Origin: Candidatus Hatepunaea meridiana
Lineage (GTDB): Bacteria; Electryoneota; AABM5-125-24; Hatepunaeales; Hatepunaeaceae
Direction of reading: 5' to 3'
Assembly (NCBI GenBank): GCA_030765125.1
Contig: JAVCDD010000180.1
Span: 7,033-71,032, forward strand
Length of the DNA stretch: 64,000 nucleotides
The position numbers and the translations under genes were made by a program. The notes beneath the pieces are model-generated. The model had not been told where the DNA came from. It searched no databases and saw only the letters and a list, made by a program, of their open reading frames with translations. Below, in pieces: positions 1 to 38,600 of the stretch; position 1 is the stretch's first letter, and each line of letters begins with the position of its first letter.

Positions 1-3000
1 ATACGGCGCGGGTCGGGATCTTCATCCAGTATTATATCCCCGATATCCTCAATGATTTCAGGTGGATCGTTGACCGGATTGATCACCAACCGGAAGTCCA
101 GATCGGTTGAAGCACCCGGTTCGTCGGTGGCTCGAATGGTAATTTCTACGCCGTCCGGGATATTGTAATTCGGTTCAGGTTCGAAATGCAGTACATTGAA
201 CTGGTCGACCTCCATATTCAACTCTTCTGGAGCGTCGATGACCGAAAAGTTCATTTCGTCTTCTTCTATATCGTAGAACACTTCGTCGAGGTCAGCCACG
301 TCAACCCGGTCAGGGTCTTCGTCAATCCTTATATTTTCAATCTGTTCGACAATCCGCGGTGCATCGTTGATGGCGTTAACGACGACTTCGAAGACGTCTT
401 CCGCCGTTTCTTCACCATCTGAAGCGGTGATCGTAACATCGACGTTCCCGTTCCAATCCGCTTCAGGCTGGACATAGAGCCTGCCCTGTACAATGCGAAT
501 ACTAAGCCCTTCAGCGTCGGACTCCTGGAACTCAAGATCGTCATCATCATCCGGGTCAACGAAGTGATCGTTCAGATCGGCAATTAGCCTTTCACCGTCG
601 TCCTCGTCAAATTCCTGATCGGGGATTTCCTCTACTAATATGGGTGGTTGATTTACGTGACCGACGGTAATATCAACCGTTGCGCGGGTCCTGCGACCTC
701 CCTGGTCACTTACTTCGAAGATCGGGCTGTATTCACCTTCATCATCAAGATCGGTCTGCCAGTTGAATGTGCCCGTGTTATCACCATTATCAGTGAATTC
801 CGCGCCGCGGTCTTCAGTTCCGTCGTCAACCAGCATTAACAGTTCCAGTTCGTCACCTTCAAACTCGATGTCAAAATCGTCAGCGGTCAGAGTGAATTCG
901 ATTTCATCGCCCTCATCAACATTTACCTCATCCAGCGGGTCAACCCAGAAGGGAGGGTCATTGACAGGGGTTATGGTAACCAGGAATACATCGTCAATGC
1001 TGTCATCACGGCGCGGGGAAGAAGAATTTTGGATTTTGGATTTTGAATGTTGAATGTCAGTAGCGTAAGCATTCCCGCTTGCGGAAACCATACACGCTGT
1101 TCGTAGCGCCGACGTCTTAACGGCATTACCGGAATTATAAGATGGTCTGAATACCATTAAGGCTCTACCGCCTTGATCATCGTCTGCTGTTACGGTTACT
1201 TCGAGATCATCACCGTTGAAATTCTCCGGAGCTTCCAACAGCAGCATATTATCATCGTCAATCTCTGCCGTAAGAGGTTCATCCGCTTCAACAGAGAATG
1301 ACAGATCATCGTCATCCGGGTCCTCGAATACCTCATCCAATACTGCGACTTCAAACTGACCGAAGTCCTCGGGTACACGCATATCCGCAATCGGGCTGAC
1401 TACCCGAGGTGGCTGGTTGATGTTGTTAACGGTGATATTAACCGTCAGATCATCGGTTCCATCATCTGTGTCGGTTACGCGGAAGACAGGGGTATAAGGA
1501 TCATCACGACTATCATCAGCGCCAGGCGTCCAGGTAAATTCTGCCGTGCCGTCGTCGTTATCAGCAAATTCCCATCCGTCAGGCAATTCACCTTCGTCGA
1601 ATACCGACCAGACCAGATCGTTGACATCATCTTCAACATCACTTGCCTGGAAGACGATATGGAGTTCTTCCTCTTCAGTAACATCAACGTCAATCTCATC
1701 GCCTAAAGCCTCGCCCTGATCGTCTTCGATAACAGGATCATCGTTAATCGAAAGGACGTTGATCGTGAATTCATCGGTAATTGATTCGTCTCTTCGAGGA
1801 GGAGAAGAATGTAGGATGAATTTTGAATGTTGAATGTTGAATGTTGAATGTTGATTATTGATTCGGGCGGCGATCATAATTCGCTGTCCCCAACTGTCCT
1901 CGGCTTCGATAATCACCTCTGATTCACCGAAGTAGTTCGGATCTGGTTCTACGGACAGGATGTGTGTTTCAATATCAATATTAGCGTTCAATTCTTGAAT
2001 CTCATTAGCTTCGATGATGTCAAACTCTAAATCATCACCATCCGGATCATCGAAAACATCGTCCAGGTCGGCGATTTCGATTACACCGGCGTCCTCGTCA
2101 ATATCTATATCGTCAATCGGATTTACAACTTCCGGAGGACGGTTGAAGTTGCCGACGGCGATGGTGATCTCCAGATCGACATCTTCCTCACCATCGGATA
2201 CCGTGAAGATTGGCGTATATTCACCTTCGTCTTCGAACGTTGTCTGCCAGGTAAAGCTTGCCGTACCGTGCTCGTTATCATTGAGTTCCGCTTCATCCGG
2301 CAGACCACCGCGGTCGCTGAATTCGATGGTCAGATCGTTGTTGTTGTCCACGTCATCCTGGGCAATAAGTTCGAAACGGGCAACGTTTCCTTCGTTTACC
2401 TCGTAACGATTGTCTTCAGGATAGCTCTCCCAGACCGGTGGATCGTTGAGCGGATTAACGGTAACAGTGAATTCATCGGATACGGTCTCGTCGCGGCGGG
2501 GTGGAGGGTTGAAATAGGGGGACAGTATACCTATTTCTGTTAATGGACCATCGTTCTTTTCAAGAGCACTCATGAAATAGGTATACTGTCCCCCTATTTC
2601 TGCGAGGCTTCGAGATGGCTGCACATTAACCATCAAACGCCCACCGTTCTCCTCATCATCTGCTGTCACGGTTACGATTAGATTCTCACCGTAAAAATCA
2701 TCCTCCGGTCTCAACGTCAGGATATTCTCATCGCTGATTTCCAGATTCAGTTCTTCAGTACCTTCCACCGAGAAAGTAAGATCGACGCCGTTCGGATCTA
2801 CGAAAATTTCATCCAGGTCGGCTACCTCCAACAGACCGGAATCTTCGTCGATTTCGACATCGTCAATCGGATTTACAACTTCGGGAGGATCGTTGATGGC
2901 TATGCCGGCGATATCAACCGTCAATTCAGCGTTGTCAGGATCGTTGGAGCTAATTGTTATTACGTCGCGGAACACACCGGCGTCTTCGGGAGCGAAGGTT

Positions 3001-6000
3001 ACAGTCAATTCATAGTTGTCTTCGGATTCAATAGTAAGTTCTTCGGCAAAGTCAAAACTGAAGTCCTCACCATCGGAAGTTATTTCGAATATTGTCAGGT
3101 CTCCATTGCCTTCGTTGCTTATGGTCAATATCAGTTCTTCGCTCTCGTGAATTGAAACGTTGCCAAAGTCCAGAACATTGGGGGATATGACAATTGCAGG
3201 ATGCGGGACAAAGTCTGTTACGTCAATGATTACCAAACCATTCTCACCGTCGGCGACGTATGCCATATCTCCCACGATCTGAACCCGTTTGGATAAGCCG
3301 TCTGTGTTATGGGCAGCAATCTCGCTCATATCTTCGGGGTCGGACACGTCGATAATTCCCAAGCCTTCCTCCCCGTCACAAACAAAGGCACTATTGCCTC
3401 GTACATCGATGCCCGTCGCTTCACCTTCGGTATCAAACGAGCCGACTTCAGCCGGATTTTCAGGATCGGATACATCGACCACAATAAGTCCATCATTCCA
3501 TTGTGCTACATAGGCGTAATCCCCGACGATAACGACATCCCAGGCTTGACCCGGAGTATCAAAGGATCCAATCTCATCCGGGTCCTCAGGATTGGAAACA
3601 TCGATAATACGAAGACCGCCTCCAGCAGCAGCTAAATATGCATAGTTCCCGTTAACGTCGACGCCTCGTGAATTACCCGGTGTTTCGACTGTGCTGATTT
3701 CATCAGGGTTCTCAGGGTCGGAAATGTCAATTATACTAAGTGCACTACTCCCTTGGCTCTCATCTGCTACATAGGCATAATCGCCCTCAACGCAGACATC
3801 CCAGGCATACATTTGCCACCTTTCGAGTGCGCCAACCTCTTCAGGGTTCTCAGGATCGGAAATATCGATTATGCGAAGCCCACTTCCGAAGTCCGCTACA
3901 TAAGCATAGTTTCCGATTACGAAGACCGCGCGAGATGTCCCTGGAGTATTGTAGAATCCGATTTCATCTGGGTTCTCCGGATCGGTTACGTCGATCATGC
4001 GAAGACCGCTGTTTCCATCTGCAACATATGCAAAGTCGTTTACAACAAAAATCCCCTGGGCATCTCCCGGTGTGTCGTAGGAGCCTACCTCGTCAATCTG
4101 CGGCTCCCGTCCTGTGCCGGTCAGGTCAACGGTCAGTTCATCGTTATTGGGATCGTCAGATGAAATGGTCATTGTGGCGGTGAAATCACCGGTTTCTTCA
4201 GGTATAAAGGAAACGATTAACTCGAAACTGCCTTCCGGTTCGATAACTAACTCGTCCTCGAAGTTGCTGCTGAAATAATTTTCATCAATTGAAATATCGG
4301 ATACGGTCAGGTCGGCGTTGCCTTCGTTGCCAATAGTGAGAATCAGATCACTCCGCTGGTGGACTGCCACTCCGCCGAAGTCCAGTGATGCCGGTGTTAC
4401 AGTAATACCTGCTTCCGGTTCTTGATGGAAGTAAAAAGCGCCCATATCCGCCTGTGTTTCATCAGGATCGTCCGGCGCGTCCGGATCACCGGAGTCGATG
4501 CAGGGGCTGTTGCGGGTCAGGGAATAATCATCATTGTCTATGTCCGCGAACAATGGATCGGAATCAATGTTCCCCGCTCCGGCGTATCCACCTTGAATAT
4601 CGGAGTAGGCGATGGTTAAACCAGCAGGAGTAGCTCCCGGTTGGTTACCCCAGAAGATCGAGTTCACGATTTGAGCGGAGGAGTTATCATAAGTATGAAT
4701 TCCACCATTGCCGGTCTCGCCGATGTTGCCGGTTATAGTTACGTTTATCAAAGTGGGATCGCTGTCGTGTGTGCTGTAGATAGCTCCACCCCAACGACGG
4801 GCGTTATTGCCCTGTATCAACAGATGATCCAGCGTCGGGGCAGCGTCATTGATGTATATTCCTCCGCCGTAGTTGGAATTTCCATTGCGGATAGTGAAGC
4901 CCATCAAGACCGCATCTACTCCAATTCCATCGCGCAAAGTAACCACACTGCCACCGGCGTTGCCGTCTATGATGGTCGATTCTATATAAGCCTGATCGCC
5001 GGTAGTCAATAACAGGCTGGCAACGACTATCTCCTTACCAATGAAGTTGATGCGTTCAGAATAGGTTCCGGAATGAACAAGCACGGTGTCACCGTTCTCG
5101 ACGGCGTTGATAGCCGCCTGGATGGTTCCATAGTCATCCGGGACGTTGAACAGATGCCTGCCGGGGATACCAATTCCGGTCAGTTCGATGGTGGTTACCC
5201 TTTCGTCAGGATCGTCCGAAATGAGGGTCATAAAGGCTTCAAAATCACCGATGTCGTCAGGTGTGAAGGTAACAGGCAGAGACGCCTGCCCTTCCGGTTG
5301 GATGACAATGGCGTTCTCGAAAGTCGGTACGAATGTCTCCGATCCGCGGATGGTAACTTCCGAGACGGTAAGATCGGCGGCGCCCTCGTTGCGGATAGTC
5401 AGGATCAGTTCTTCGCTGTCATCTATACTGACCTCGCCGAATTCCAGGATTTCCGGCTCAACGGCAATATCCGGAGCCACACCTGAACCGGTCAAGGTGA
5501 TTGTTATTTCATCCTCTTCAGGGTCGTTGGATGCTATGGTTATTATTCCCTCAAAATCGGCGACAGCATCCGGTGAGAAGGTGACGATCAGGTCGGTGTT
5601 GTCGTCGGGTTCAATATTGATTGCATCTTCAAAATCACTGTTGAAGTTGTCACCTTCAATTGTCACTTCGGATACGGTAAGAGGACCTTCGCCTTCGTTG
5701 CCGATGGTTAAATTCATCCGGGCATTATCATCGATTACAACTTCACCGAAGTCAAGATTGTACGTTGAAACTGTAATTGCCGGGTGCGGCATAAAGTCGG
5801 TCACGTTCAGGATGCGCAGTCCGCTGGCTCCATCAGCAACATAAGCGTGAGTTCCGATCACTGAAACATCGTAAGCCTCGTCAGGCGTGTTATAAGATGC
5901 GGTTTCACCAATATTTCCCAAGTCGGAAATGTCTATTACCTGCAGTCCACTCTCCATATCCGCAACGTAGGCGAATCTTCCCAAAACCGTTACGGCAACG

Positions 6001-9000
6001 GCGCGATCTGGCGTGTCAAGTTCACCGAGTTCTTCAATATTTTCGGGGTCGGATATATCGAGGATATGTAAACCACTCTCGTTGTCTGTAACGTAGGCGA
6101 TAGATTCGATGATGAATATTTCCGTTGCAATGTCGGGAGTATCGTAGCGTCCCGTTTCTTCGATATTCTCAGGATCGGAAATGTTCAATACTAACAATCC
6201 ATTAGCGCCGTCTGCTACGTAAGCATATTCACCAATGACTGTTACAGCGTGCGCCAATCCCTCTGTATTAAAGGATCCAACCTCGCTCGGATGCGCCCTG
6301 TTTGATATATTGACCACCCTCAGACCGCTCTCCATATCTGCTATATAAGCGATTGTGCCGACAACAGCGACATCAACGGCATTTCCGGGAGTGTCGAATT
6401 CACCTGTTGGATTGGGGTCTCCGGGATCAAAGACGTCTATGACTTGTAAGCCGTTTTCATCGGCGGCTACGAAAGCGTAGTCTTCCGACACAACAACGCT
6501 CATTGCGGTTCCGATATCACCGGCTGATGCGACCTCGTCAGGGTTCTCAGGGTCGGTTATGTCTATTACTCTTAAGCCTCCGTCACCATCTGCAACGAAA
6601 GCGAAATCTTCTATGACGGTAACTCCGTAAGCTGTTCCATCGGTGTCATAGTTTCCTACTTCGTCGATGTCCGGTTCGCGTCCGGCGCCGGATAACTGAA
6701 CAATTATTTCACCGTTTTCGGGATCGTTTGAGGTGATGGTTAATGTGCCTTCGAAATCACCTGCTTCTTGGGGGGCGAAGGTGACAGACAGGAATGTCTG
6801 TCCTACCGGGTCGATGACAATGGGGTCTTCGAAGCTGCTACTGAACCAGACTCCTTCAACGGTTACATCGGATACGGTTAAAGGACCGTCGCCTTCGTTG
6901 CTGATGGTGAGTCTTTGATCAATACTGCGTTCTATCTGTATAGCGCCGAAGTCCAGTTGTTCCGGTTCAACGACTATTATTGGAACTACGCCTGTGCCGG
7001 TTAATGCTATGGCTATTACCTCTTCATCCGGATCATCAGAGGATATGGTCAGTGTTGCTTCAAAATCACCTGATTCCTGTGGAGCGAAAGTAACGGTCAG
7101 ATCGAATTCCTCATCCGGTTGGATGACGAACGCTTCGTCGAAGTCGCTGCTGAAGTAATTCCCTTCAATTGCGATGTCAGAGACGTTCAATTCAACCAAA
7201 CCATCATTGCTTAATGTAAGCGTCAGATCAGCGCTCTCGCCTCCTGACACCTGACCGAAGTTCAATTCATTCGGATTAACCATTAGATTCGGTTCTTGCG
7301 CCTGGTGGTAGTAGAGTGCGCCCATATCGGCGCGGGTTTCGTCCGGGTCTTGATCGGCGTTGGGATCACCGGTGTCGACGCAGGGGCTGTTGCGCAAGAT
7401 TTGGTAGTCGCTGTTGTCTGCATCGGCAAATAAGGGATCTTCCTCGATGTTGCCTGCACCGGCATAGCTGCCTTCAATATCTGAGAAGGTGATCGTCATA
7501 CCGTTCTGCAGATCAGGCGGTTCGTTGCCCCATATAATAGAATTAATCACCTGAGCACTCGCTCCACCGCCGCCGATGCCAATAGCAGCGTTGTCGCTGT
7601 TTGCAGTGTTACCGGAGATGGTTACGTTGACGAGAATGGGAATGGAACCGCTGGTGGCGTATAGCCCACCGCCGCGTCCACTGGCGACGTTGTCGACTAT
7701 AGCGAGGTGATCGAGCGTGGGCGTGGTCTGATCGCCGTTGCAATAGATACCACCGCCCCAATCGGTGTCGGCATTTCTAACGGTAAAGCCGGTCAGGATT
7801 GCCGCTTCCGTTTCACCGTTGCGGAAGACGACCGTACTCCTGCCGTTTGCGCCGCCGTCAATTATGGTCGATTCGATGTATTCAGCCTCACCTGTGGTCA
7901 GGTACAGACTGCCGACGGTTACGTCTATGCCGTTGAAGTTGACGTTCTCTTCGTAGGTGCCGGGTTGAACCAGCACGATGTCACCGGCTATGGATACGTC
8001 GATTGCTTCCTGGATGGTTTCATAGTCATCCGGCACGTTGACGGTGCGCGCTTCGGTCTCTATACCGGTGCCACTCAAATCAACGGTTACTTCTCCTTCA
8101 TCGGGATCGTCGCTGGTTATGGTCAATACAGCTTGCAGATCGCCTGTTTCACCGGGCAAGAAGGTTACATTAACTTCAGAACTTTCGTCCGGTTGGATGA
8201 CAATGGGGTTTAAAAAGTCGCTGCTGTAGTAGGCGCCTGCAATCGTTATATCGGAGACGGTCAGTTCGATATTGCCTTCGTTAGAGATAGTTATGGCTAA
8301 CTGGGACGACCTGCCCATTTCAGTTTCAGGGAAGGCGAGGGCTTCGGGATCAACGGCGATGTCAGGTGTAAGTCCCGATCCGGTTAAGGGGATGTTTATC
8401 TCACCCTCATCGGGATCATTGGACGTTATGGTCAGCGTTCCTTCGAAATCACCGGTTTCATTCGGCTGGAAGTTTACGTTGAACTGCCGGTTGCCGTCCG
8501 GTGCAATTACGAATTCCTCCTCAAAGTCCGAGGAGAAATATTGACCTTCGATGGAAATATCCGAAACAGTAAGATCGGAATTTCCATCATTGGTGATTAT
8601 CAATGGCAGAGTGGATATTTGTCCCACCAGGCAGTCGCCAAATGGGAAGGAATTGCGGTTAACGGTAATATCCGGCGCCACGCCTGAACCGCTTAGCGCA
8701 ACCTCAACCTCCGGATCGTCCGGATCATCGGAAAGTATAGTCAGGGTTGCATCAAAATCGTTCACCTCTTCCGGCGCGAACGTAACGGTCAGCTCAAAGT
8801 CCTCAAACGGTTGGATGACGATTTCTTCATCAAAATCGGTCAGGAATGTCTGCGCTCCCCGGATTGAAATATCCGAAATGGTCAATTCCCAGTTGCCATC
8901 GTTGCTGATGGTTAACGTCAGGTCTTCAGTTTCACCGGTTACAACCTCACCGAAGTCGAACGCTTCGTCTGAAAGGGTGATTTCGGGGTATTGGACGAAG

Positions 9001-12000
9001 TCGGAGACGTCGAGGATTAATAAACCGTTATTCCCATCAGCCACATATGCATAGTTTCCTACAACAGAAACATCCCAAGAATGTTGAGTTCGGTGATTAC
9101 CAACCTCATCAGGATTCTCAGGATCTGAAACATCTATTAAACGTAGACTGCTTTGACCGGCGGGAGTAAAGCATGCAACATAAGCTATGTTACCTACAAC
9201 AGTTAAGTCTCGAGCATAATCACGTGTATCTTGAGATCCAACTTCGACCAATTCATCTGGGTTAGAAATATCAATAATTCTTAGACCTTCTGTATAATCT
9301 GCTACATAAGCATAGTTTTCTATGACTGAAACACCCAGAGCTGCACCTGGAGTATCATATATTCCTAATCCTCCAAGGTTACGAGCATTAATCAATATTA
9401 AACCTGTCTGATTATCTGCAACATAAGCGATCTCATCAACTATCACAACATCCCGTGCGATTTGCGGCGTGTTAAATGAACCGGTTAATCTTGGATCTTC
9501 AGGGTCGGATATGTTAATAGCTTGCAAACCGCTACGTCCATCAGCTATGTAAACATAATCTCCGCTGACCGCAATACCTTCTGCCCAATCAGGAGTATCA
9601 CAGCTTCCTATTTCATCAGGTTCCTCAGGATTAGACACATCAATAATACGGAGACCGCTCTCGTAATCCGCTACAAATGCCAAATTATCCGAAACCACCA
9701 CATCATAGGCATTTCCTGGAGTTTCACAGAAACCTATCTCATCTGGATTCTCTGGATCAGAGATATCTATTATCCGTAGACCCCCTGCATTATCTGCTAA
9801 ATAGGCAATATCCCCGACAATATCTATACCAAATGTTACACCATTAGTATTATAATGCCCCACTTCCGGTATCGCCGGTTCCCTGCCGACTCCCACCAAT
9901 GCAACATCCACTTCCCCATTATCCGGGTCGTCGGAAGTTATGGTCAGTGTCCCCTCGAAGTTGTTCTCGCTGTCCGGTGTGAACCGAACGGGTAGTTCGA
10001 AGGTGGCGTCCGGTTCGACGATCATCTCTTCATCGATATCCTCAAAGATACTGCTGAAGTTGTCGTGTCCGATTGATATATCGGATATGGTCAGGTCGCC
10101 GTCACCGTCGTTGCCGATGGTCAGGATGAGCTCGACGGTCTGGTCGATTACGACCTCGCCGAAGTTCAGCGATTCGGGATCATGCGTGAGGATAGGCGCA
10201 ACGCCCAGTCCGCTTAAGTTCACATCCAATTCTCCATTATCCGGATCATCGGATGTTATGGTCAGCGTTGCCTGCAGGTCTCCGGTCGCGTCAGGTGCAA
10301 AGGTTACGGTCAGTTCATAGGGCTCGTCCGGTTCGATGACGACCTCACCGTCGAAGTCGCTGGTGAAGTAGTCACCCGCGATTGATATGTCGGAAACGGT
10401 CAGAGGCGCGCGTCCCTCGTTGTTATCAATAGTGAGAATCATATCTGTCTCGTGACCGACTACCGTGTTGGGGAAGACAAGCTCTGCCGGTGTTACAGCG
10501 ATAACGGGAGCCGCTTCCTGGAAGAAGTAGAGGGCGCCCATATCGGCGCGCGTGGTGTCGGGGTCTTCGGGAGCGTCGGGATCGGCTGCGTCAACGCAGG
10601 GGCTGTCCTCAGTGATGTAGAAGTCGTTGTTGTCTGTGTCAGCGAAAATGGGATCGGAATCAAGGTTGTCTACTCCAGCGTAACCGCCCTCGATGTCGCA
10701 GTATGCAACGGTCAATCCGTTCGGCATTCCGGCGGGTTGGTTGCCCCAGACGATTGAGTTTCCGATAGTGGCTGAGGCGCCTGCAAAGATATTAATAGCG
10801 CCGACCTCTTCGTTTGCCGTGTTGCCGTAAAGGGTTATAAAGTTCAGATCAGGATTGGCGTTGTTGGTGGCGTAGATACCTCCACCGCGGCTGGTGGAGC
10901 TGTTTCCGTAGATTACCAGATGATCCAGCGTCGGGCTCGCGTCGTTGATATAGAGCCCACCGCCGAAGTCGGTTGAGCCGTTGCGAATGGTGAAGCCTAT
11001 CAGTTCCGCTTCGTCTGTCTCACCGTTGCGGAAGGCGACTACACTACGCCCGTTGTCGCCGCCGTCGATTATGGTTGAGGCTATGTCATCCGGATCGTCG
11101 CTCTCGATATATTGGCTGGCAACCGTGATGTTTTTGCCGCGGAAATTGATGTTCTCATTATAAACACCGGGGTCGACCAGAACGCGGTCGATGTCAATGG
11201 CTTCGTCAATGGCTGCCTGGATGGTCTCGAAGTCATCAGGGACGTTGTATTCGCGGGGCTGTGCTTCGATGCCGGTTCCTGACAGGGCAACAGCAAGCTC
11301 ACCGTTGTCGGGATCGTCTGAGGTGATGGTCATAGTGGCTTCGTGGTCACCGGTCTCGGTGGGGGAGAAAACGACAGACAGGAATGTCTGTCCTACCGGT
11401 TCTATGATTATTTCGTCTGTAAAGTCGCTGCTGAAATAATCCCCTTCAAAGGTTACGTCTGTAATGTACAGGTCTGTATCGCCGGTGTTGCTGATGGTTA
11501 TGACAGACAAGGATGTCCGTCCCACCTCAGTATCAGGGAATCCAATGGCTTCGGGGTCTATGGTGATTTCGGGGTATTCTACGATGCCGCCGGTAACTTC
11601 GGAACAGTTGAAGATGTAAAGCCCTTCATCCTCATCGGTGATATAGGCGTAATTGCCGGATACATACAAGCCGATAGCGTAGCCTGGAGTGTCGTGGAAA
11701 CCAATCTCTTCCGGTTCGGCAGGGTTTGAAACGTCTATCAAGCGCAATCCCTCGTCACCATCGGCAACATAAGCGAAATCATGCGCGACAAAGACGCTTT
11801 CGGATGAGCCGGGAGTGTTTACAAAGCCGACCTCTTCCGGTTCTGCGGGGTTTGATACGTTTATAATGCGAAGTCCACTGCCTGAAGCGGCGACATAAGC
11901 ATAGTCACCGGCTGCGAAAACTCCATAGGCACGACTCGGCATTTCGAGATTGCTCACTTCATCCGGATTTTCCGGGTCGGACACGTCGATTATGCGCAGT

Positions 12001-15000
12001 CCACCGGCTTGATCTGCAAGATAAGCGTAGTCACCTGAAACGTAAACTGAAAAAGCTTGACCGGGTGTGTCGAACGCTCCAATCTCATCGGGATCATCGG
12101 GGTTGGAGACATCAATTATACGCAGACCGCTGGCGCCGTCTGCAACGTAGGCAAGATTGTCTTTGTAATAAACAGCATACGCGGCACCCGGGGTGTCGAA
12201 GGTTCCGACCTCATTGGGATTTTCGGGGTCTGAGATGTCGATTATGCGCAGTCCGCTGGCAGCGTCCGCAACGTAAGCATACGAACCAGCAACGTCTATG
12301 CCGGTTGCTTCACCGGGGGTGTCGTAGGAACCGACAGCCTGCGGTTGACCGGGGTCGGATACGTCGACAATCTGCATACCTTCCCAGTAGTCAGCTATGT
12401 AAGCCAGCCCTCGCGAGACGTAGACGCCTTCGGACATTCCGGGCGTTTCGTAATGACCTACCTGCCGGATCTGCGGACCGGTTCCGATGCCGGTTAAATC
12501 AACTTCAATCTCCTCGTTTTGAGGGTCGTTGGAGGTGATGGTCAGTGTGCCAGCGTAATCGATTGTTTCTACAGGTGTAAATGTTACGGTCTGTTCGATG
12601 CTGTTGTCGGGTTCTATGGTGATTTCGTCCTCAAATACGGTTTGGAATACTTCGTCACCCTGAATGGTAATATCAGTGATGATAAGATCCTCATTTCCTA
12701 CATTGGTGATGGTGAGGATAAGATCGCGGTCAATGTCAATGGCAGACTCGCCGAAGTCGAGCGCACCCGGTGAGATCCTGATAGTCGGAGGCTGGGGTTG
12801 CTGTTGGTAGTAGAATGCGCCCATATCGGCACGTGTTTCATCGCTATCCTGGGGCGAGTTCGGATCACCGACGTCTATACAGGGGGAGTCTTCGGTCAGT
12901 TGGAAATCATCATTGTCAAAGTCGGCAAATAAGGGATCCTGATCGATGTTGCCGGCGCCGTTATAACCACCCTGAACGTCAGAATAGGTAATGGTTTGTC
13001 CACCAGGAAGCGCTGCCGGGGTGTTTCCCCAGAATATCGAGTTGACTGCCTGTGTTTGAGCGCCACCCCCTCCAACACCTATTCCGCCGTTACCGCCATC
13101 GGCGTCGTTGTTGGTGAATGTTATGTTATTCAGGAGCGGTTGCGCACCAGTGGTGACATAGATGCCTGCACCTCGTCCGCTGACGTGATTGCCTGTTATC
13201 AATAGATGATGCAATGTAGGATTAGCGCCACGGATGTAAGAGCCGCCGCCGAAGTCGGTATCTGCATTGCGGATTGTGAAGCCTGCGAGGACAGCTTCGT
13301 TTGTCTCACCGTTGCGGAAGACCGTTACGCTTCTGCCGTTGGCGTCACCGTCGATAATGGTCGAAGCGATGTAATCAGGATCACCGGTTGTGATATAGAG
13401 GCTGCCAACGACGATATTCTTACCAATAAAGTCAATGATCTCAGTATAGGTTTCAGGTTGAACCAGTACTGTGTCACCGTCAGCAGCGTTGTCGATTGCT
13501 TCCTGGATGGTGTCGTAGTCGTCCGGAACGTTGATTATAAAATCTCGTCCCGATCCGGAAAGAGCTACTGCGAGATCCTCGTTCTCAGGATCGTCAGATG
13601 CTATGGTAAGTGTTCCAACGAAATCATCAATGTCATCCGGTGAGAAGGTTACGGTTAATTCGCGACTTTCATTCGGTTGGATGACGATCTCATTCTCGAA
13701 ATCGCTGATGAAGTTGTCCCCTTCAATAGTTATATCGGATATAGTCAGATCACCGAAACCGGTGTTGCTGATAGTGAGTATCAGGTCTGCTTCGTCGTCA
13801 ATCGGAACAGCACCGAAGTCCAGGGCATCCGGAGATACGTCAATAGCGGGGATCGCTTCGACACCGATTCCGGTCAGGTTCACATCCAGGTTCTCGTTAT
13901 CCGGATCGTTAGATGTGATTACAAGCGTGCCGGCGAGATCACCGGTATCATCCGGCTGGAAGGTGACAGTTACATCAGAAGTGTTGCCCGGTTCGATGAC
14001 CACTTCATTCTCGAAATCTGAACTGAATATGTCTCCTTCAATAGTAATATCCGAGACATTCAGGTTTTCACGTCCTCTATTTCGGATGGTTAGAATCAGA
14101 TCGGCGCTCTGGTCGACTACTACCTCAGCAAAGTCAAGCGCTTCAGGAGAAACAACGATGCTCGGTCCCTCTGCCTGGAATAACGGGAATGTTCCCATAT
14201 CGGCGCGTGTGCCGTCCGGGTCTTCGGGTGCATCAGGATTGCCTGTATCTTTACAGGGGCTGTCATCGGTCAGGTGAAAATCATCATTGTCGGGATCAAC
14301 GAACAATGGATCTGTATCTATGTTGCCTCTGCCGTTATAACCGCCCTGGATATCAGAGAATGTGATCGTCTGGTTGGCGGGAATATCTGGTGGGGCATTA
14401 TCCCAGAATATGGAGTTTACAATAGTAACCACTGATCCACCGAAAACATCCAGAACACCGTTGTTTTGCTCAGAATCATTGCGGGTCAGGGTAACGTTTG
14501 TCATCGTAGGACTACCGCCGCCATAGGCAATTATCGCACCGCCCCATCTTACGGTATGGTTATCGGTGATCAATAAATGATCCAGTATCGGGCTGCCGCC
14601 ATTACAGAGTATTCCCCCTCCGAAATCAGCGGCGCCGTTGCGAATTGTAAAACCGGACAGGATGGAATTCACTGTCTCACCGTTGGCAAAGGTTACAACG
14701 CTAGTGTTATTAGCATCGCCATCGATTATGGTTGATTCAACGTAATCCGCATCACCTGTAGTAATAAACAGGCTGCCTACAATGATTTCCTTGCCGTTAA
14801 AGTTGATGTTTTCTGTGTATGTCCCGGGCGCTACCAAAACAGTATCCGTGTCGATGGCATTATCAATAGCTTCCTGTATAGTATCGAAATCATCAGGCAC
14901 ATCGTGTACATGATCGAGCGGTTCGATGCCAGTTCCAGTTAAAGCGACGTCAACTTCTTCTTCATTCGGGTCATCGGATGTAATAGTGAGCGTTCCCTGG

Positions 15001-18000
15001 TAATCTTCTATATCATCAGGTGCAAACGTTACCGTAACATCATAACTGTTGTCCGGTTCGATTACGATTTCATCTTCTTCGAAGTCGTGCGTGAAAACAT
15101 CACCTTCAATAGTGATGTCAGTTACGGTCAGATCGGTACGACCATTATTCCTGATTGTGAGCGACAGTTCAGCGCTCAATTCAAGCTCAACCTCTCCAAA
15201 GATAAGTTGAGCCGGTATTACCGATATGTTTGGCTCTTCCGGCAGCTCGAAGTAGAAGGCGCCCATATCATTGCGTGTTTCGTCAGGATCCTGTGGTGAA
15301 TTCGGATCACCTGCATTTATACAAGGGGAGTCTTCAGTTAATTGGAAATCATCATTATCAAAGTCGGCAAATAAGGGATCGGAATCAAGATTCCCTGCTC
15401 CGGCGTATCCACCCTGAACATCGGAATATGTAATAGTCTGACCGCCAGGAAGCGCTGCAGGTGTGTTTCCCCAGAATATCGAGTTGATTACCTGGGTTTG
15501 AGCGCCGCCCCCACCGACTCCGATTCCACCGTTGGCACCGTCGGCATCGTTGTTGGTGAATGTTATGTTATTCAGGAGCGGTTGTGCTCCGGTAGTGGCA
15601 TAAATCCCTGCGCCGCGTCCGCTGACATGGTTGGCGGTTATTAATAGGTGGTGCAATGTTGGACTGGCGTCACGGATGTATGAGCCGCCTCCGAAGTCGG
15701 TATCTGCATTGCGAATTGTGAAACCGGCAAGGACGGCTTCGTTTGTCTCGCCGTTGCGGAAGACCGTTACGCTTCTGCCGTTGGCGTCACCATCAATAAT
15801 GGTCGAAGCGATATAGTCGGGATCACCTGTGGTGATATACAAACTGCCGACAACGATGTTCTTGCCAATAAAGTCAATGATTTCAGTATAGGTCTCAGGT
15901 TGAACCAGCACCGTGTCGCCGTCAACAGCGTTGTCGATTGCTTCCTGAATGGTATCGTAGTCATCCGGAACATTGATTATGTAATCCCGTCCCGATCCTG
16001 AAAGAGCAACAGCGAGATCCTCGTTCTCCGGATCGTTAGATGCTATGGTTAACGTTCCATTAAAATCACCAACGTCATCCGGTGAGAAGGTCACATTTAA
16101 TTCATAGCTGTCATCCGGTTCGATTACAACCTCATTCTCGAAATCGCTGATGAAATTGTCACCTTCAATGGTTACATCGGATATAGTCAGATCACCGAAG
16201 CCGGTGTTGCTGATGGTTAGTATCAAGCCTGCCTCGTCGTCAACCGGAATTGCTCCAAAGTCCAGCGCATCCGGCAATACTACTATTGCAGGAATCGCTT
16301 CGACACCGATTCCGGTCAGGTTCACCTCCAGATCTTCATTGTCCGGATCGTTGGATGTGATTACAAGCGTACCAGCGAAATCTCCGGTAGCATTCGGCTG
16401 GAAGGTAACGATTACTTCAGAAGTGTTGCCTGGCTCGATGACTACTGCATTCTCAAAATTGCTGCGGAAGTTATCCCCCTCAATTGTTATATCGGATACC
16501 CTTAAGTCTTCACGTCCTCTATTTCGGATGGTGAGCGTCAGATCAGCGCCCTGGTCGACTACTACCTCAGCAAAGTCGAGAGCTTCAGGGGAAACAACGA
16601 TACTTGGTCCTTCAACCTGGAACAGCGGGAATGTTCCCATATCAGCGCGTGTGCCGTCCGGGTCTTCGGGTGCATCAGGATTGCCTGTGTCTTTACAGGG
16701 ACTGTCATCGGTCAGGTGAAAATCATCATTGTCGGGGTCAACGAACAATGGGTCTGTATCTATATTGCCTCTGCCGTTATAACCGCCCTGAATGTCGGAG
16801 AAGGTGATTGTTTGGTTAGCCGGTATATCAGGTGGGTCGTTATCCCAGAATATGGAGTTTACAATAGTAACCACTGATCCACCGAAAACATCCAGAGTGC
16901 CGCTATTTTGCTCGGAATCATTACCGGTCAGGGTAACGTTTCTCATCGTAGGACTACCGCCGCCATACGCAATTATCGCACCGCCCCATCTGACGGAATG
17001 GTTGTCGGTGATCAATAAATGATCCAGCATCGGGCTACCGCCATTACAGAGTATTCCCGCTCCGAAGTTAGCACCGCCATTGCGGATAGTAAAACCTGAC
17101 AGGACGGAATTCACTGTCTCACCGTTGGCAAAAGTTACTACGCTCGTGATATTCCCATCACCGTCAATAATTGTTGATTCGACGAAATCTGCATTACCTG
17201 TTGTAATAAATTGACTGCCGACGACGATTTCCTTGCCGCCAAAGTTGATGTTTTCAGTATAAGTTCCGGGCGCTACCAACACAGTATCCGTATCGATGGC
17301 GTTATCGATGGCTTCCTGAATGGTATCGTAGTCGTCGGGAACGTTGATCCTGAAACTTCTCCCGATTCCAGAAAGAGCGACAGCCAACTCTTCGTTCTCC
17401 GGATCATCTGATGCAATAGTAAGTGTCCCATTAAAATCACCTACGTCATCAGGAGAGAATGTAACCGTTAATTCATAACTGTCATCCGGTTCGATTACAA
17501 CCTCATTCTCAAAGTCGCTGCTGAAGTTATCGCCTTCAAAGGTAACGTCCGAAACGGTCAGGTCACCGAAACCCACGTTGGCGATAGTGAGTATCAGATC
17601 CGCATCGCCGTTAACCACTACCGCACCGAAGTCCAAAGCATCTGGAAATGGATCAATAGAAGGGATAGCTTCCACGCCGATTCCTGTCAGATTAACCTCC
17701 AATTCCTCGTTATCCGGATCATTGGATGTAATTACAAGCGTTCCGTTAAAATCACCTGTATCATCAGGCTGGAAAGTGACAGTTACTTCATAAGTGTTGC
17801 CCGGCTCGATGTCCACTTCATTATCAAAATCGCTTCTGAAGATGTTCCCCTCAATCGTTATATCAGATACATTTAAGTCTTCGCGTCCCCTGTTTCTGAT
17901 AGTGAGCGTTAGATCGGCACTCTGGTCGACTACAACCTCAGCAAAGTCAAGCGCTTCAGGAGAAACAACGATACTTGGTCCCTCTGCCTGGAATAGTGGG

Positions 18001-19862
18001 AATGTTCCCATATCGGCGCGTGTGCCGTCCGGGTCTTCTGGGGAGTCAGGATCACCTGTATCGATACAGGGGCTGTCGTCAGTCAGGTGATAATCATTAT
18101 TGTCGGGATCGGCAAATAAAGGATCCGTGTCGATGTTGCCTGCACCTGCATACCCACCCTGGACATCGGAGTAGGTAATCGTTTGATTGGCTGGTATATC
18201 GGGTGGATCGTTATCCCAGAAAATCGAGTTAACCATATTAACAACTGCACCGCTGAAAATGCTCAAAGCTCCGTTGCCTTGATCGGCGCTATTGCCTGTT
18301 AAGGTGATGTTTCGTATAGTAGGGCGGGCGTTGGCGTAAGCAATTATTCCTCCGCCTCGATTGACGGCGTTGTTGCCGGTTATCAGGAGATGATCCAGCG
18401 TCGGGGCAGAACCATTACAGAGTATTCCCGCTCCGAAGTTAGCCCTGCCATTGAAGATAGTAAAACCTGACAGGATGGAGTTCACTGTCTCACCGTTGGC
18501 AAAGGTTACTACACTCGTGTTATTCGCATCGCCGTCAATAATAGTTGATTCAACATAATCCGCATCACCCGTTGTAATAAAAAGGCTGCCGACAAGGATT
18601 TCCTTGCCGCTAAAGTTAATATTCTCCGTGTAAGTTCCGGGAGCAACCAGTACAGTATCCGTATCAAGCGCATTATCAATAGCTTCTTGTATAGTATCAT
18701 AATCATCCGGCACGTCTATTCTGTGATCGCGGGGTTCTACGCCCGTTCCTGTTAAAGCAACGTCAAGTTCTTCCTGGTCCGGGTCGTCGGAGGTAATAAT
18801 TAGCGTTCCCTGATAATCCTGCGTTTCCTCAGGGGCAAAGGTTACAATTACATCATAACTGTTATCCGGGTCGATAACTACTTCATCTTCTTCAAAGTCA
18901 TGCGTGAAACCATCTTCATGAATGGTAATATCCATTACAGTCAAGTCGGTGCGTCCAATATTGCTTATAGTAAGAGTTAATTCAGCGTTTTGTTCAAGCT
19001 CAACATCCCCAAAGTTAAGCTCAGCCGGTGACACGGCAATATTCGGTTCTTCCGGCTGATCGAAGTAGAACGCGCCCATATCGGCGCGTGTCTCGTCGGG
19101 ATCATCGTCTGAATTGGGGTCTCCGGTGTCAATACAGGGGGAGTTCTCTGTGATGTAAAAATCACCTTCACCAGGATCGACAAACAACGGATCCTGGTTG
19201 ATGTTTCCATTACCGGCATAACCACCCTGGATGTCGGAATATGTAACGGTCATCCCATTGGGTCTTCCGGCGGGTTGGTTGCCATAGGATATGCAGTTGA
19301 CCATATTAGCCGAGGCGCCGCCGTAGACATGAATTCCCCCATTGCCGCCTTCAGCCGTATTGTTGGCAATCGTAATGTTGGTCAAACTGGGAAGAGCGTC
19401 GCTGGTGCAATAGATGCCACCTCCCCACCTGGCAGCGTGGTTTCCGGTAATGAGCAGATGATCCAGCGTCGGTCGAGCGTTGTTAATGTATAGTCCACCA
19501 CCGTAATTTGCCGAACCGTTTGTGATCGTAAGACCAATCAACCGCGCTTCCGCGCCTACACCACCGCGAATTGAAACAATAGTACCACCACCACCGCCAT
19601 CGATGATAGTATTTTCGATGTGCTCCGGATCGTTTTCGTTCAGGTAGAGACTGGCAACGGTGATTTCCTTATCCAGGAAATTGATGTTTTCAACGTATCT
19701 ACCGGGCTGAATCAGCACGACATCGCCGTCTTCAGCTTCGATTATCGCTTCCTGAATGGTTTCAAAGTCGTCAGGAACGTTTATCACCTCAGCGTAAACG
19801 GTTGATACACCTGTGATTATTGCAAGTATAAAAGTAATAATTAGAGGAAATTTAGGACGCAT
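1..19862 (-). CDS. Giant secreted multidomain surface protein; N-terminus complete, C-terminus beyond the left window edge (>=6620 codons)
   Basis: Absent from the ORF track, which appears to list only ORFs with a stop in the window. The ATG is at 19862-19860 on the minus strand, followed by the signal-like peptide [24 protein letters not shown]. I hand-translated 1-2700 codon by codon and read through the rest. The nine V-P-D-D module starts (first bases 19778, 18713, 17342, 15971, 14900, 13529, 11243, 8036, 5144) and the RRD codons at 2498 and 1796 all share one phase (coordinate mod 3 = 2). A stop in that phase would have produced a listed ORF starting at 19862, and none is listed. Confidence 0.85.
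   Translation of the reverse strand, partial: [6620 protein letters not shown]
1026..1060 (-). repeat. Heptanucleotide tandem repeat (TGGATTT)2(TGAATGT)2, in frame in the giant ORF
   Basis: Units attttgg (1026-1032, 1033-1039), attttga (1040-1046), atgttga (1047-1053) and atgtcag (1054-1060). Verified translation is ...[22 protein letters not shown]. Confidence 0.8.
1817..1865 (-). repeat. Heptanucleotide tandem repeat (TGAATGT)4 plus degenerate flanking units, in frame in the giant ORF
   Basis: Perfect units lie at 1824-1830, 1831-1837, 1838-1844 and 1845-1851. Degenerate units are tgaattt (1817-1823), tgattat (1852-1858) and tgattcg (1859-1865). The stretch translates on the minus strand as [28 protein letters not shown]. 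Confidence 0.85.
2511..2600 (-). mobile_element. 90-bp palindromic element (family A, GGGGACAGTATACC core) lying in frame inside the giant ORF
   Basis: The perfect 27-bp arms are gaaatagggggacagtatacctatttc (2511-2537) and its reverse complement (2574-2600). The arms are identical to the intergenic copy at 23858-23944. The 36-nt loop resembles that copy's loop in inverted orientation. Codon-by-codon translation gives [31 protein letters not shown] with no stop. Confidence 0.75.
3215..4110 (-). repeat. LVIVD-repeat beta-propeller block 4
   Basis: Repeats such as [25 protein letters not shown] and [25 protein letters not shown]. Confidence 0.7.
5795..6685 (-). repeat. LVIVD-repeat beta-propeller block 3
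   Basis: Repeats such as [24 protein letters not shown] and [23 protein letters not shown]. Confidence 0.7.
6783..6809 (-). repeat. REP-like 27-mer (GTAG head + GACAGACA/TGTCTGTC hairpin) inside the giant ORF
   Basis: The plus strand reads gacagacaggaatgtctgtcctaccgg. The minus strand reads ccGGTAGGACAGACATTCCTGTCTGTC and codes PVGQTFLSV within an Ig-like domain. It is identical to 11373-11399 and near-identical to intergenic copies at 35287, 35349 and 56611. Confidence 0.8.
9000..9885 (-). repeat. LVIVD-repeat beta-propeller block 2
   Basis: Repeats such as [25 protein letters not shown] and [25 protein letters not shown]. Confidence 0.7.
11373..11399 (-). repeat. Second identical copy of the REP-like 27-mer inside the giant ORF
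   Basis: Same 27-mer as 6783-6809, coding [15 protein letters not shown]. A degenerate relative, gacagacaaggatgtccgtcccacc, lies at 11501-11525. Confidence 0.8.
11600..12475 (-). repeat. LVIVD-repeat beta-propeller block 1
   Basis: Translation shows about 7 repeats of the form AYVAD..[24 protein letters not shown], matching my memory of the PF08309 LVIVD consensus. Confidence 0.7.
12465..17348 (-). repeat. Tandem duplication, two units of 2442 bp (beta-helix + 2 Ig + beta-helix + 1 Ig) inside the giant ORF
   Basis: Module starts 17342/14900 and 15971/13529 are each exactly 2442 bp apart. A 60-nt stretch I compared (16981-17040 vs 14539-14598) matches at 55/60. The antisense shadow ORFs 13531..14277 and 16150..16719 have near-identical translations. 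Confidence 0.8.
17349..18719 (-). repeat. Partial third copy (1371-bp sub-unit: beta-helix + 2 Ig) of the tandem repeat
   Basis: The module start at 18713 lies 1371 bp from 17342. The shadow ORF 17794..18090 is near-identical in translation to the corresponding parts of 16150..16719 and 13531..14277. Confidence 0.7.
19794..19862 (-). other. Predicted signal peptide of the giant ORF
   Basis: Translation [32 protein letters not shown] has a basic N-terminus, a hydrophobic core and a VYA-type cleavage motif. No predictor was run. Confidence 0.55.
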
Positions 19863-20002: not shown

Positions 20003-20078
20003 GAGAGACAGTATGCTTGTTTTTACCCATTTCCTTAATAAAGTTCCAGATTGTAATAAAATCAGGTATACTGTCCCC
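20003..20078. repeat. Family A hairpin element (diverged copy)
   Basis: The arms are gagagacagtatgcttgttttt (20003-20024) and aaaatcaggtatactgtcccc (20058-20078), imperfectly complementary. They share the GACAGTAT core with the copies at 2511 and 23858. Confidence 0.55.
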
Positions 20079-23857: not shown

Positions 23858-23944
23858 AAATAGGGGGACAGTATACCTATTTCATAAATACTCTTTGAAA
23901 TAACGACGGTCAATAAAGAAATAGGTATACTGTCCCCCTATTTC
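23858..23944. repeat. Family A palindromic element, intergenic copy
   Basis: The arms aaatagggggacagtatacctatttc (23858-23883) and gaaataggtatactgtccccctatttc (23918-23944) sit in the 131-bp spacer between the Mrp-NifX stop and the OYE start. Confidence 0.8.
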
Positions 23945-34377: not shown

Positions 34378-34383
34378 ATTTAT

Positions 34384-35202: not shown

Positions 35203-35251
35203 TTCACCTCACAGGCAGGGTCGCCTGCGGCTCCTGTATTTCGGCTAACAT

Positions 35252-35640: not shown

Positions 35641-38600
35641 TTACTTCACCAGCATTACCTTGCGTACGGACTTGAAGTTGGCAGCTTCCATCCGGACAAT
35701 GTAGATACCGGAGGTCATACCAGCTCCATCCCAGACCGCAGTGTAACGACCCGCTTTGAGTTCGTTGTTTATCAGAGTCGTAACCAGACGACCTGTCACA
35801 TCGAACACATTGATCGTAACTTTTGCAGCCTCAGGTAAGCCGTAGTTAATGCGTGTAACCGCATTAAATGGGTTAGGATAGTTCTGAGACAGACTGTACT
35901 CATCCGGTATGCCTGCATCAACCCTGACATCTATTATCGTCAAGGCGTTGGTGAGGTAAACAAGTCCCTTACCAGATTTGATGCTTGCTTTCAGGTTCAC
36001 TTCAGTCTCGTTGGCGTTATTCCACATGCGTAAGGTGAATGCTTCATCTTCCTGCAGACCGTCAACGACGTTTTTAGTGTGTTCAGAATCACCCCAGATA
36101 GGTAATCCACACATTTCGTCGGAAATTGTGCCGACACCTATTAGTTTACCGGAAGCGTCAAAGGCGGCAATCTGATCGCCGTCCTCAACAGGTGTTCCGA
36201 TAATCGAAGTTACCAGTACACTCATGTTGACATCGGTCTTTACAGGGGAAGCCCAGTGGCTGCCAGCTTCGCTTGCAGACATCAGAGCCGCGCCTTGGTC
36301 TTCATCCTCCGGATATAGTAATTCGACATCTTCGTCAACGTTGATCTGGTAACCTTGACCAGGTGTCCACGGTTCCATATTCGAGAAGCCATATGAAGGT
36401 ACCATGAAGCCACCTGGTCCATCTTTGGCAATGATAACATTGTCAACAATAGATGACACAACGTGGAAACCGCTACCGCGTGAAGCTTCCAGATCATAGG
36501 TTGGATAGTAGGCAACTATATTCCAACCTGCATCAACACCTGCAACCACAGTCTGTGGATGGATCGGAACGCCTAACCAAGAGGCTTCGAGTTCTTCGTT
36601 AACGTTCATCAGGTAACCTTCAGCGGTGTTCCAGAAGTCAATACCGTAAAAATCCCAATCCGGGACACAGAAATCACCAGCTTCGTCCTTCATAATAACT
36701 ACGTGGTGGTTATCATCCTCATCCTTGTACTGTTCGAGCATTAGCTCAACATCCGGACCATCATCATCATCGAGATTTTCCCAGTAATCAGCAATTGGAA
36801 TGATGTTCAATGAGATCATGTTCCAGCCTTCGAGATGAAGAATGGTCTGCTCGCGAAGTTGGTAGGCTGTTACACAAGTTACTATCGTTTCACCGTTGTT
36901 AACCCAGACACGCGGACCAGCATTATCTTCTATTTCAGCAGTGGCAAGAAGTTCTTCGTCAGCATCCGGGTCCCAGGCACGATAGTTAATATTATCGCCG
37001 TTTTCGAATCCTTCGACATCATCAGCCGCACCATAAGCGATTAACACAGAGCCTTCGCCACGCCAAACAACACCGCCGGCAAGGACGTCATCGTCAGTGT
37101 ATGCAGCGATTTCCCAACCGTTGGGAACAGGTTCTTCGTCAAATGCGACATCTAAAATGCTCAGATAGTGCATCAGGTTGGTCGTTTCGAATTCAGCGAA
37201 GTGCTGTATACGAGCGCCAAGCTGAAGTTCGACGTCAAAGACTATTTCTGCATTTTCAGGATCGTTAGTAAGGATAGTAACGGTAGCATGATAATCAATC
37301 CAGTCTTCAAGGTCTGCAGGATCAAATGTAAGTATTATCTCTGTCGATTCACCGGCATGTACATCACCTTCATCCGGTTCGGCAGTAACCCAGGTTGAAA
37401 CGTTTGCAAGGTGATCAAGATACCAGATGACAGCTTCGCCTGTTCTTCCCCAATGATAATTAGCTGGGACATTATGCAGATAGCCGTCAACCGTAGTAGA
37501 TACGAGGCAGAAGCCGCGACCGTATTGATAAGTCAGGATGATTGGCTCATTTGTAGGATTACCCATCGCCATTATTTGCACCCATTCGACGTTATCCATA
37601 TTGTCAATGTCCCTCTGGAGAAATACACCATGTGCGCATCCACCGCCGACCAGTCTCTGTCCTTCACCCCATTCCCAGTTAAAGGGATCGTTCTCGTTCA
37701 TATAATTGATGAGGAAGTTCTCTTCAGGGTCCAACTGGAGCGGACACTGATTCTGAGATTGACTACCATTATATACGAGACCACCAGGATTTGTCGGTCT
37801 GGTATTATGATTATTTGTCCCGGAACTGTGATAGAGGGCTCCGCCACCATCAACGAATTCCTCTATACGTTCAAGGTTCTGGTTATATTGAGCTACCCAC
37901 GCATCCGCCTCGTAGTTCCCGATCCACATAAAGTCGTACTCTGTGAAATCAACGTCCTGCACTTGATTCCAGGTGCGATAGCGATCATAATCCAGATCAT
38001 CTATCGCTTGGAAATATCGTTCGAAGTCCCAGTTCGACCAGCCGCAGCGCTCTGCAATCAGAATGCCTCGTCCTTCCGGCTGATCGCGGCGAGGTCCGAT
38101 TGCGCGTTTAGTTGAACGCAGGGAGCGAACAGCGTCATCGCGTTCCTCTTCCTCGATATCTTCGATCTCGATCTCAAAATGCAGGTCACGTCTTTCACCT
38201 TCTTCGTTGGCAAGTACGATGATTTCCTCAACAGGATCGTCACCCATTAGCATCTGAACGATGATTTCGGTTGGGTTATCCGGATCTGTTTCAGGATCGG
38301 TTGATGCGATCGGGGCTAATTCACCTACACCGATCAAATCCCACCAGATTCGGTCATCGTCACCAATATCCTGGTTTTCAGCGTCGGAAAAGATGCTGAA
38401 CGTCGCTTCACGTACTCCAGTCTGACTGGGACTGAAGGTTAATGTGAATGCGAGTTCCTGTTCAGGATCCAGGACCGCCTGGTCATCTATATCCGTGCTG
38501 TAATCGTCGGCAGCATCCCCAGTAAATTCGACACCGTCAATTATAAGATCTGTCGAACCGCAGTTCACGACTGTAATACTTATTTCGGAATCGCCATTTA

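Follow-up and report, generated by a model that had tools for sequence, protein, structure and literature searches.

A candidate Arg-specific processing loop in Big_9 domains of giant type IX secretion proteins from Candidatus Hatepunaea meridiana and related bacteria

A 64-kb stretch of DNA from Candidatus Hatepunaea meridiana (contig JAVCDD010000180.1; the whole stretch is called the window here) encodes a giant protein, open reading frame 1 (ORF1), in which three immunoglobulin-like (Ig-like) domains carry an insertion at the same position (slots 1 to 3). Slot 3 (1002-1175) had been assigned, in a reading made from the letters alone (the sequence-only reading), to a junction cassette shared with a second giant gene of 4817 codons. 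We find that it belongs to a conserved type of disordered, Arg-rich loop and is a diverged copy, with a decayed R-x-L-R core and an intact PRRD end; by itself, slot 3 is a fairly ordinary variable loop. Across relatives, the loop opens with a few hydrophobic residues, has R-x-L-R-S as its core and closes with P-R-R-D, next to the final strand of the domain. Probably, it is an old disordered loop of Big_9 domains that is kept by selection on its peptide, may serve as an Arg-specific processing site and tolerates repeat DNA.

The minus strand is open from position 19904 to the left window edge. ORF1 is MDP8239314.1, a protein of 6901 amino acids (aa) from Candidatus H. meridiana, an uncultured bacterium of the phylum Electryoneota from an Antarctic lake (P0054 of our protein set; domain coordinates and sequence match), and 6634 aa of it are encoded in the window. 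The last 300 aa, outside the window, contain a Por_Secre_tail domain, the C-terminal sorting domain of type IX secretion systems (T9SS), with 39.9 bits at a cut-off of 27; judged by this domain, ORF1 is a T9SS cargo protein. In the C-terminal kilobase that lies in the window, Ig-like domains of the types Big_9 and Cadherin_4/5 (Pfam) and tandem-95 repeat (NCBIfam) alternate. Five of these domains are of one type: A, C and E have a slot, and G and H, the sister domains of E, have none and bridge its position with 2-4 residues. The features around slot 3 are the following (pLDDT, predicted local distance difference test):

1..19862, minus strand: window part of ORF1, an open frame with its ATG at 19862 that continues past the left window edge
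951..1406, minus strand: domain E, a Big_9 / tandem-95 Ig-like domain that houses slot 3 (Pfam, NCBIfam, AlphaFold)
1017..1163, minus strand: slot 3, the 49-aa loop ALMVF...NSSS between the last two strands (translation, gap in G and H, pLDDT)
1140..1163, minus strand: hydrophobic loop start ALMVFRPS, with a similar run in most relatives that have a slot (alignment A2)
1095..1112, minus strand: SALRTA, degenerate remnant of the R-x-L-R-S core
1072..1087, no strand: imperfect 7-bp hairpin, stem 1072-1078 / 1081-1087 with one wobble
1024..1055, no strand: heptanucleotide microsatellite GAATTTT / TGAATGT, 4.6 copies, in frame, coding for IQHSKSKIQN
1005..1016, minus strand: PRRD, the conserved loop end

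Domain E is recognised both by Pfam (Big_9, PF17963, 137.4 bits, cut-off 23.6) and by NCBIfam (tand_rpt_95, NF012211, 114.3 bits, cut-off 90). An AlphaFold model, built from the 22-sequence alignment A2, shows a beta-sandwich of seven strands with pLDDT values of 94-97 for the Ig body. The residues of slot 3 (about 80-130) have values of 45-53 and no secondary structure; they are bordered by the strands at residues 65-75 and 136-146, the last two of the domain, and confidence recovers at RRD. Slot 3 is thus predicted to be an intrinsically disordered loop that joins the final two beta strands of its Big_9 domain. A former gene boundary or an intron-like sequence can be ruled out as the origin of the slots, as they lie inside a single well-predicted domain and the loop is kept as protein in relatives. 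An assembly artefact is unlikely too: a sequencing read is longer than any of the arrays, the reading frame is intact and the same pattern is present in paralogues of the genome.

Much of what had been described for slot 3 was reproduced. The minus strand translates to TADDDQGGR-ALMVFRPSYNSGNAVKTSALRTACMVSASGNAYATDIQHSKSKIQNSSS-PRRDDSIDDVF, exactly as given before, and nucleotides 1017-1163, the proposed 49-aa insert, are indeed extra relative to the slot-less domains G and H. Tandem Repeats Finder confirmed the heptamers (period 7 at 1024-1055, 4.6 copies, 88% matches, score 43). Only two period-7 arrays with a score of at least 43 are present in the window, both in slots of ORF1, and none was found in thirty shuffles. 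About 11 of the 49 slot-3 residues derive from this 32-nucleotide microsatellite, which is in frame just upstream of PRRD. The hairpin that had been noted has a real stem, but its stability is that of chance (z = -1.8; 10 of 200 shuffles were as good); in the same folding test, the whole of slot 3 reached z = -1.4 and the palindrome of slot 1 z = -8.25. Rfam covariance models found nothing relevant at E<=10 in 800-2900 and nothing at gathering threshold in the whole window.

Slots 1 and 2, and a copy of the element found in slot 1, are located as follows:

1788..1883, minus strand: slot 2, R IMIAARIN...SSPPRRD, with a TGAATGT array of 5.4 copies at 1817-1854
2490..2639, minus strand: slot 1, R LMVNVQPSRSLA...NPPPRRD, with a 90-nucleotide palindromic element inserted in frame at 2511-2600
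23858..23944, no strand: intergenic copy of the slot-1 palindromic element

The proposed common 3' flank is present: all three slots finish in (S/P)PRRD(D/E)(S/T), and RRD occurs at just three places within the 6634 window-encoded aa of ORF1, namely in the slots, each time as PRRD. Of the similar starts that had been seen after GG(R)/GQR, a short hydrophobic run (LMV / IMI) is shared and nothing beyond it. The statement that the middle differs completely in each slot does not hold, since 1024-1057 of slot 3 and 1818-1851 of slot 2 are 88% identical over 34 nucleotides and encode IQHSK by identical codons, while the bodies of the two host domains are just 55% identical in DNA.

The loop is not restricted to ORF1: homologues from metagenome-assembled genomes (MAGs) of Electryoneota and Calditrichota have loops of 20-75 aa at the slot position. 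We analysed 46 homologues and 145 further giant proteins, the latter obtained by searching 1.84 billion representatives with a profile, and took expected numbers from shuffles. The combined motif R-x-[LIVM]-R-[STN..]-x(2-45)-[PA]-[RQGSD]-R-D was observed 13 times in the 46 homologues (0.02 expected), in all 13 cases immediately ahead of the final strand in a Big_9 domain, and 24 times in the 145 further proteins (0.2 expected), in which P[RQ]RD alone was observed 46 times (3.9 expected). Both sets together have 40 Big_9 loops that end in P[RQ]RD, in 29 giant proteins. In 27 of these loops, R-x-[LIVMF]-R is found upstream at a distance of up to 60 aa (3.4 expected). The loops share GPV-R-x-L-R-S-I-G as their consensus, and the median distance to PRRD is 10 residues. 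The slots of ORF1 show only one half of this signature: all three have P[RQ]RD directly before the last strand or next module, and none has R-x-[LIVMF]-R within 60 aa (SALRTA in slot 3, SRSLAE in slot 1, nothing in slot 2).

The signature recurs between the modules of the second giant protein in the window, ORF2, likewise a T9SS cargo by its tail:

35641..50094, minus strand: ORF2, 4817 aa, T9SS cargo with Por_Secre_tail (37.7 bits)
49846-49890, 48466-48546, 46981-47043, 45520-45579 and 44068-44127, minus strand: ORF2 linkers 1-5, ending in (P/A)RRD
42622-42681, 41119-41178, 39613-39669 and 38083-38142, minus strand: ORF2 linkers 6-9, ending in (P/A)RRD

These linkers follow the pattern RDNASRTLRSTxxxxGPRRD, with PRRD in eight of the nine and ARRD in the ninth, and their geometry agrees with the spacing in the consensus of the Big_9 loops. 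Seven of the nine have R-x-[LIVMF]-R; the N-terminal linker lacks it and the linker at aa 3476-3494 reads RTLN. The two-part signature is also found between the modules of the ORF2-like proteins P0059 and P0116, and PRRD alone is found 20-45 aa after the signal peptides of P0024, P0035, P0072 and P0113. A word-indexed homologue search with an ORF2 linker region gave no matches, and a literature search for PRRD in connection with type IX secretion found nothing; the loop motif R-x-L-R ... P-R-R-D appears undescribed in the literature searched.

The idea of one homologous junction cassette in ORF1 and the 4817-aa gene is therefore only partly retained: it holds at the level of the peptide and through the relatives, and neither inside the window nor at the level of DNA. 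SALRTA and SRSLAE, which had been likened to SRTLRS of ORF2, are each merely half of R-x-L-R, and a profile of eight ORF2 linkers matches ORF1 solely at the PRRD of slot 3, with 1.5 bits; strictly taken, there is no significant similarity between ORF1 and ORF2 flanks in the window beyond RRD. It is highly improbable that the flanks of the slots serve in the DNA as a target for recombination or insertion, allowing the middles to be swapped. Three kinds of repeat DNA do occur at the same domain position, and the 34-nucleotide block of slots 2 and 3, set against the 55% of the domains, suggests DNA exchange or common descent of the arrays. But at the level of DNA, conservation of the flanks does not exceed that of the domains (identities of 0.37-0.61 for slot flanks and 0.52-0.67 for domain bodies), contrary to what a target site had been expected to show. 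PRRD is encoded by CCG CGC CGT GAT, CCC CGC CGC GAC and CCT CGA AGA GAC in the three ORF1 slots, and identical flank residues have the same codon in merely 1/6, 1/4 and 3/8 of cases. Synonymous variation is free in the ORF2 linkers as well: the same-codon fraction is 43-53%, equal to that of the adjoining Ig domain (46%). Codons thus vary freely in both slot flanks and linkers, and therefore there is no signal of DNA recombination or of a target site; moreover, distant relatives keep the motif with unrelated DNA. Loops at the slot position in both Electryoneota and Calditrichota, the enrichment of the motif and the free variation of synonymous codons show, to judge from these comparisons, that the loop is old and is maintained by selection at the peptide level; it is neither a recent insert nor a DNA cassette.

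Our best guess for the function of PRRD, by analogy, is that of an exposed Arg-specific processing site; the link to a protease rests on position and neighbourhood. The Arg-rich, exposed segment of the loop would be a site of proteolytic maturation, cut after Arg, and candidates for the cutting enzyme are two gingipain-like C25 peptidases, encoded next to ORF2, or subtilases:

51070..56562, plus strand: gingipain-like C25 peptidase with T9SS tail; RRD at aa 220-222, nucleotides 51727-51735 (Pfam, RgpB alignment)
56885..62233, plus strand: second C25 peptidase with T9SS tail; PRRD at 57599-57610, about 18 aa before the C25 domain

In both peptidases, RRD or PRRD lies in the linker between the pro-domain and the catalytic domain. 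When the first one is aligned to the solved pro and mature chains of RgpB, aa 232 of the query corresponds to mature residue 9; this places the N-terminus of mature RgpB at about aa 224, within 2-3 residues of RRD. A search of solved structures with the second C25 peptidase gave just spurious weak matches. On another contig (L032, 13081-19665), a subtilase of 2194 aa is encoded beside the relative P0024 and has RPRRPD between its pro-region and the catalytic Asp. This subtilase has a Big_9 slot of its own, which ends in GPMRSIRRVNREPNCPRRD. Subtilases are abundant in Electryoneota (PMC9324843). An Arg-specific maturation site fits the data because PRRD or RRD is found at pro-domain junctions, after signal peptides and between modules.

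The putative processing would resemble that of the gingipain and HagA polyproteins on the surface of Porphyromonas, of which RgpA and Kgp require cleavage at multiple sites (PMC10319874). Like RgpA, Kgp and HagA of P. gingivalis, the Hatepunaea proteins are large T9SS cargo with repeated adhesin-like modules and Arg-containing junctions, with C25 peptidases alongside; two properties of a gingipain-type site are found, namely Arg in the junction and a C25 peptidase gene in the same genome. The likeness extends to RRD at the pro-domain junction of the Hatepunaea C25 peptidases, as in the loops. The differences are that the candidate site R-x-L-R-S ... P-R-R-D is another sequence than the gingipain junction, that the ORF1 site is in a loop within an Ig-like domain and not at a border of two domains, and that the phylum, Electryoneota, is a different one. 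R-x-L-R-(S/T) is also reminiscent of the dibasic and R-x-(hydrophobic)-R motifs processed by the eukaryotic enzymes kexin, furin and site-1 subtilases, with Arg at P4 and P1 and a hydrophobic P2.

Several observations weigh against a processing site that merely tolerates repeats. The ORF1 site lies inside a domain, and cutting there would nick the fold and not separate modules. The R-x-L-R half is lost in all three ORF1 loops, which is odd if that half is needed. P0024 adjoins a subtilase and not a C25 peptidase, so that the responsible enzyme is uncertain. Finally, four of the five repeat arrays lie 9-18 aa from PRRD and the other one 55 aa from it, a closeness that is not readily explained by tolerance alone.

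An alternative, which we regard as unlikely, is a neutral, tolerated loop with a structural cap, in which PRRD merely steadies the start of the last strand and the remainder is a functionless spacer. It would be consistent with the predicted disorder, with the hypervariable length and sequence and with RD(D/E)(S/T) abutting the last strand, where the confidence of the model recovers. Yet in ORF2 PRRD is also found ahead of unrelated domain types, and elsewhere it follows signal peptides and sits at pro-domain junctions of peptidases, and so has the behaviour of a linear motif in its own right. The conservation of the R-x-L-R-S core at a preferred distance from PRRD argues in the same direction.

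The second property of the loop, its repeat DNA, is shared by other giant proteins of H. meridiana. MDP8241096 and MDP8240478 have the peptide QHHNITTSQHH, a translated ATCACAAC octamer, in Big_9 slots 9-13 aa before PRRD, and the same octamer is present in the window:

57409-57444: 4.5 copies of the octamer ATCACAAC, in frame in the pro-domain of the second C25 peptidase gene

This array lies within an insert of about 25 aa that is absent from the paralogue at 51070. In a Calditrichota protein, two slots contain one copy each of ARVGADLSSPVEIGLS(E/K)LAPTR, which has the look of a repeat that is translated. All repeat-derived peptides found among the 191 proteins are in Big_9 slots. On the strand used, all three frames of both the heptamer and the octamer arrays are open, and on the opposite strand they are closed; this is a selection filter. 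Related contigs of low GC content are full of tandem arrays of 7 and 8 nucleotides, which are common in their intergenic DNA. The simplest reading is that the long disordered segments, the only ones in these proteins, tolerate the mutational debris of the genome: an unstructured loop would put up with the abundant short tandem repeats and palindromic elements and hence accumulate them.

The arrays could instead act as a contingency switch, slipping by units of 7 or 8 nucleotides, shifting the frame and truncating the giant protein before its T9SS sorting domain, so that surface display is toggled. We consider this rather doubtful; it is compatible with the tolerated processing loop and the two are not exclusive. 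The units are not multiples of three, and a gain or loss of one unit in slot 2 or 3 leads to a stop within 14-39 codons, which removes the last 600-870 aa of ORF1 including the sorting domain. Three different giant T9SS proteins of this genome have five such arrays between them, in four slots that all lie towards the C-terminus, and similar arrays are common between genes of related contigs. The copy numbers are, on the other hand, low (4 perfect units in slot 2, 4.6 units at 88% in slot 3), and the arrays may be a mere genome-wide mutational by-product. A search of metagenome contigs for loci related to the region of slots 2 and 3 found none, and no alternative contigs were found either.

In the contingency loci of Neisseria and Haemophilus, non-triplet tandem repeats lie in genes of surface proteins and slippage by one unit truncates the product. 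The arrays of ORF1 are likewise non-triplet and inside the reading frame, with truncation by a one-unit slip; unlike those loci, they have about 4-5 units, are partly imperfect and are near the C-terminus and not at the 5' end. The many 7-8-nucleotide arrays of the related contigs also resemble the heptanucleotide short tandemly repeated repetitive (STRR) sequences of cyanobacteria, short arrays that are spread genome-wide and mostly intergenic. Phylum and units differ from these, and in Hatepunaea a single class of protein loop repeatedly has such arrays in frame.

Slot 1 is a case of its own. Its 90-nucleotide element has a perfect inverted repeat of 27 nucleotides and 88% identity to the intergenic copy at 23858-23944; the design is that of two inverted 27-nucleotide arms, GAAATAGGGGGACAGTATACCTATTTC, with a spacer of 6-110 nucleotides. 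Degenerate copies are present in the window at about 20005-20080 and 34243-34385. An exact stretch of 21 nucleotides of the arm is also found in 4 contigs of Gammaproteobacteria MAGs and 26 metagenome contigs with 40-65% GC (L001-L030), almost always in intergenic DNA and also as single arms, and the shared stretch extends to up to 26 nucleotides in the copies read. Some copies (L003, L004, L026) have tandem duplications of the end of the arm. The layout is REPIN-like and the conservation of the arm across phyla is unusual; a literature search for the arm found nothing. In L005, a TTTTGAA array of 3.3 copies (1709-1731), similar to the units of slot 3, overlaps the stop codon of a gene 20 nucleotides upstream of a copy of the palindrome; the adjacency indicates that the two types of repeat travel together outside coding loops too.

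That slot 3 itself is an in-frame selfish element of the type of the Rickettsia palindromic elements, a mobile palindromic or MITE-like (miniature inverted-repeat transposable element) insertion that keeps the frame, is very unlikely. The description is true of slot 1, with its intergenic copy and its occurrence in 30 other contigs, and the hairpin of slot 3 is weakly similar to the ATTCCCGCCTTCGCGGGAA hairpin of a dispersed element at 34618-34715. This similarity is not significant (local alignment score 19, equalled by 56 of 1000 shuffles, p ~0.06), the fold is at chance level, the window holds no second copy of the slot-3 middle (1058-1150) and there are relatives whose loops of 20-75 aa at the slot position have no signature of repeat DNA. 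Dispersed copies and a significant palindrome, the two features of an in-frame mobile element, are thus present for slot 1; slot 3 has no significant palindrome and no further copy in the window. With Rickettsia palindromic elements and intragenic MITEs, repeat DNA that is otherwise found between genes is carried in frame by a coding gene, at a place that is exposed on the surface and structurally tolerant (PMC10969869). The likeness is clearest for the palindrome of slot 1. It differs for slot 3, which has no dispersed second copy, and for the host loop, which predates the repeats and has peptide motifs of its own; the repeats in the Hatepunaea loops are, moreover, mostly tandem arrays of 7-8 nucleotides, while the Rickettsia elements have 100-150 bp.

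The window contains further repeats. A second dispersed palindromic element at 34610-34725 (CCCATTTTGTCATTCCCGCGAAGGCGGGAATCCAGA ... inverted copy) matches metagenome contig L025 with 98% identity over 98 nucleotides and L029 with 83% identity, and contains a GTCATTCCCGCGAAGGCGGGAATC hairpin, which we take to be widespread in bacteria. Short intergenic tandem repeats or repeat families at 21849-21917, 50869-50931, 62249-62280, 62465-62544 and 63787-63810 are shared with metagenome contigs L015, L027 and L029; among them are inverted pairs of octamer arrays, TGTTATAT... / ...TAACAATA, that enclose about 200 nucleotides. Several more hairpin-like repeats, for example GACAAGAGTGTCCAACCTAC / GACAGACAAGAATGTCTGTCCTACC, are present in the intergenic DNA downstream of ORF2 (35230-35370).

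A bolder idea, for which we see little likelihood, is that the slots are 'variation sockets', by which giant Hatepunaea T9SS proteins, and possibly those of relatives, recruit genome-specific non-triplet microsatellites and hairpin elements to the loop just before PRRD; slippage would then truncate the protein ahead of the sorting domain or reshape the processing site. If true, this would be phase or antigenic variation in an uncultured, free-living phylum, coupled to an undescribed maturation signal R-x-L-R ... P-R-R-D. The signal flags protein loops in which repeats of intergenic type enter coding sequence in frame, and such loops matter when genes are called or repeats annotated, and for the question whether free-living environmental bacteria switch their surface proteins by microsatellites. 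If the probable reading, an old processing loop that tolerates repeats, is correct, R-x-L-R ... P-R-R-D would be a sequence rule for the cutting of giant T9SS surface proteins and of their peptidases, and this rule would cover Electryoneota and Calditrichota, phyla that are known just from metagenomes.

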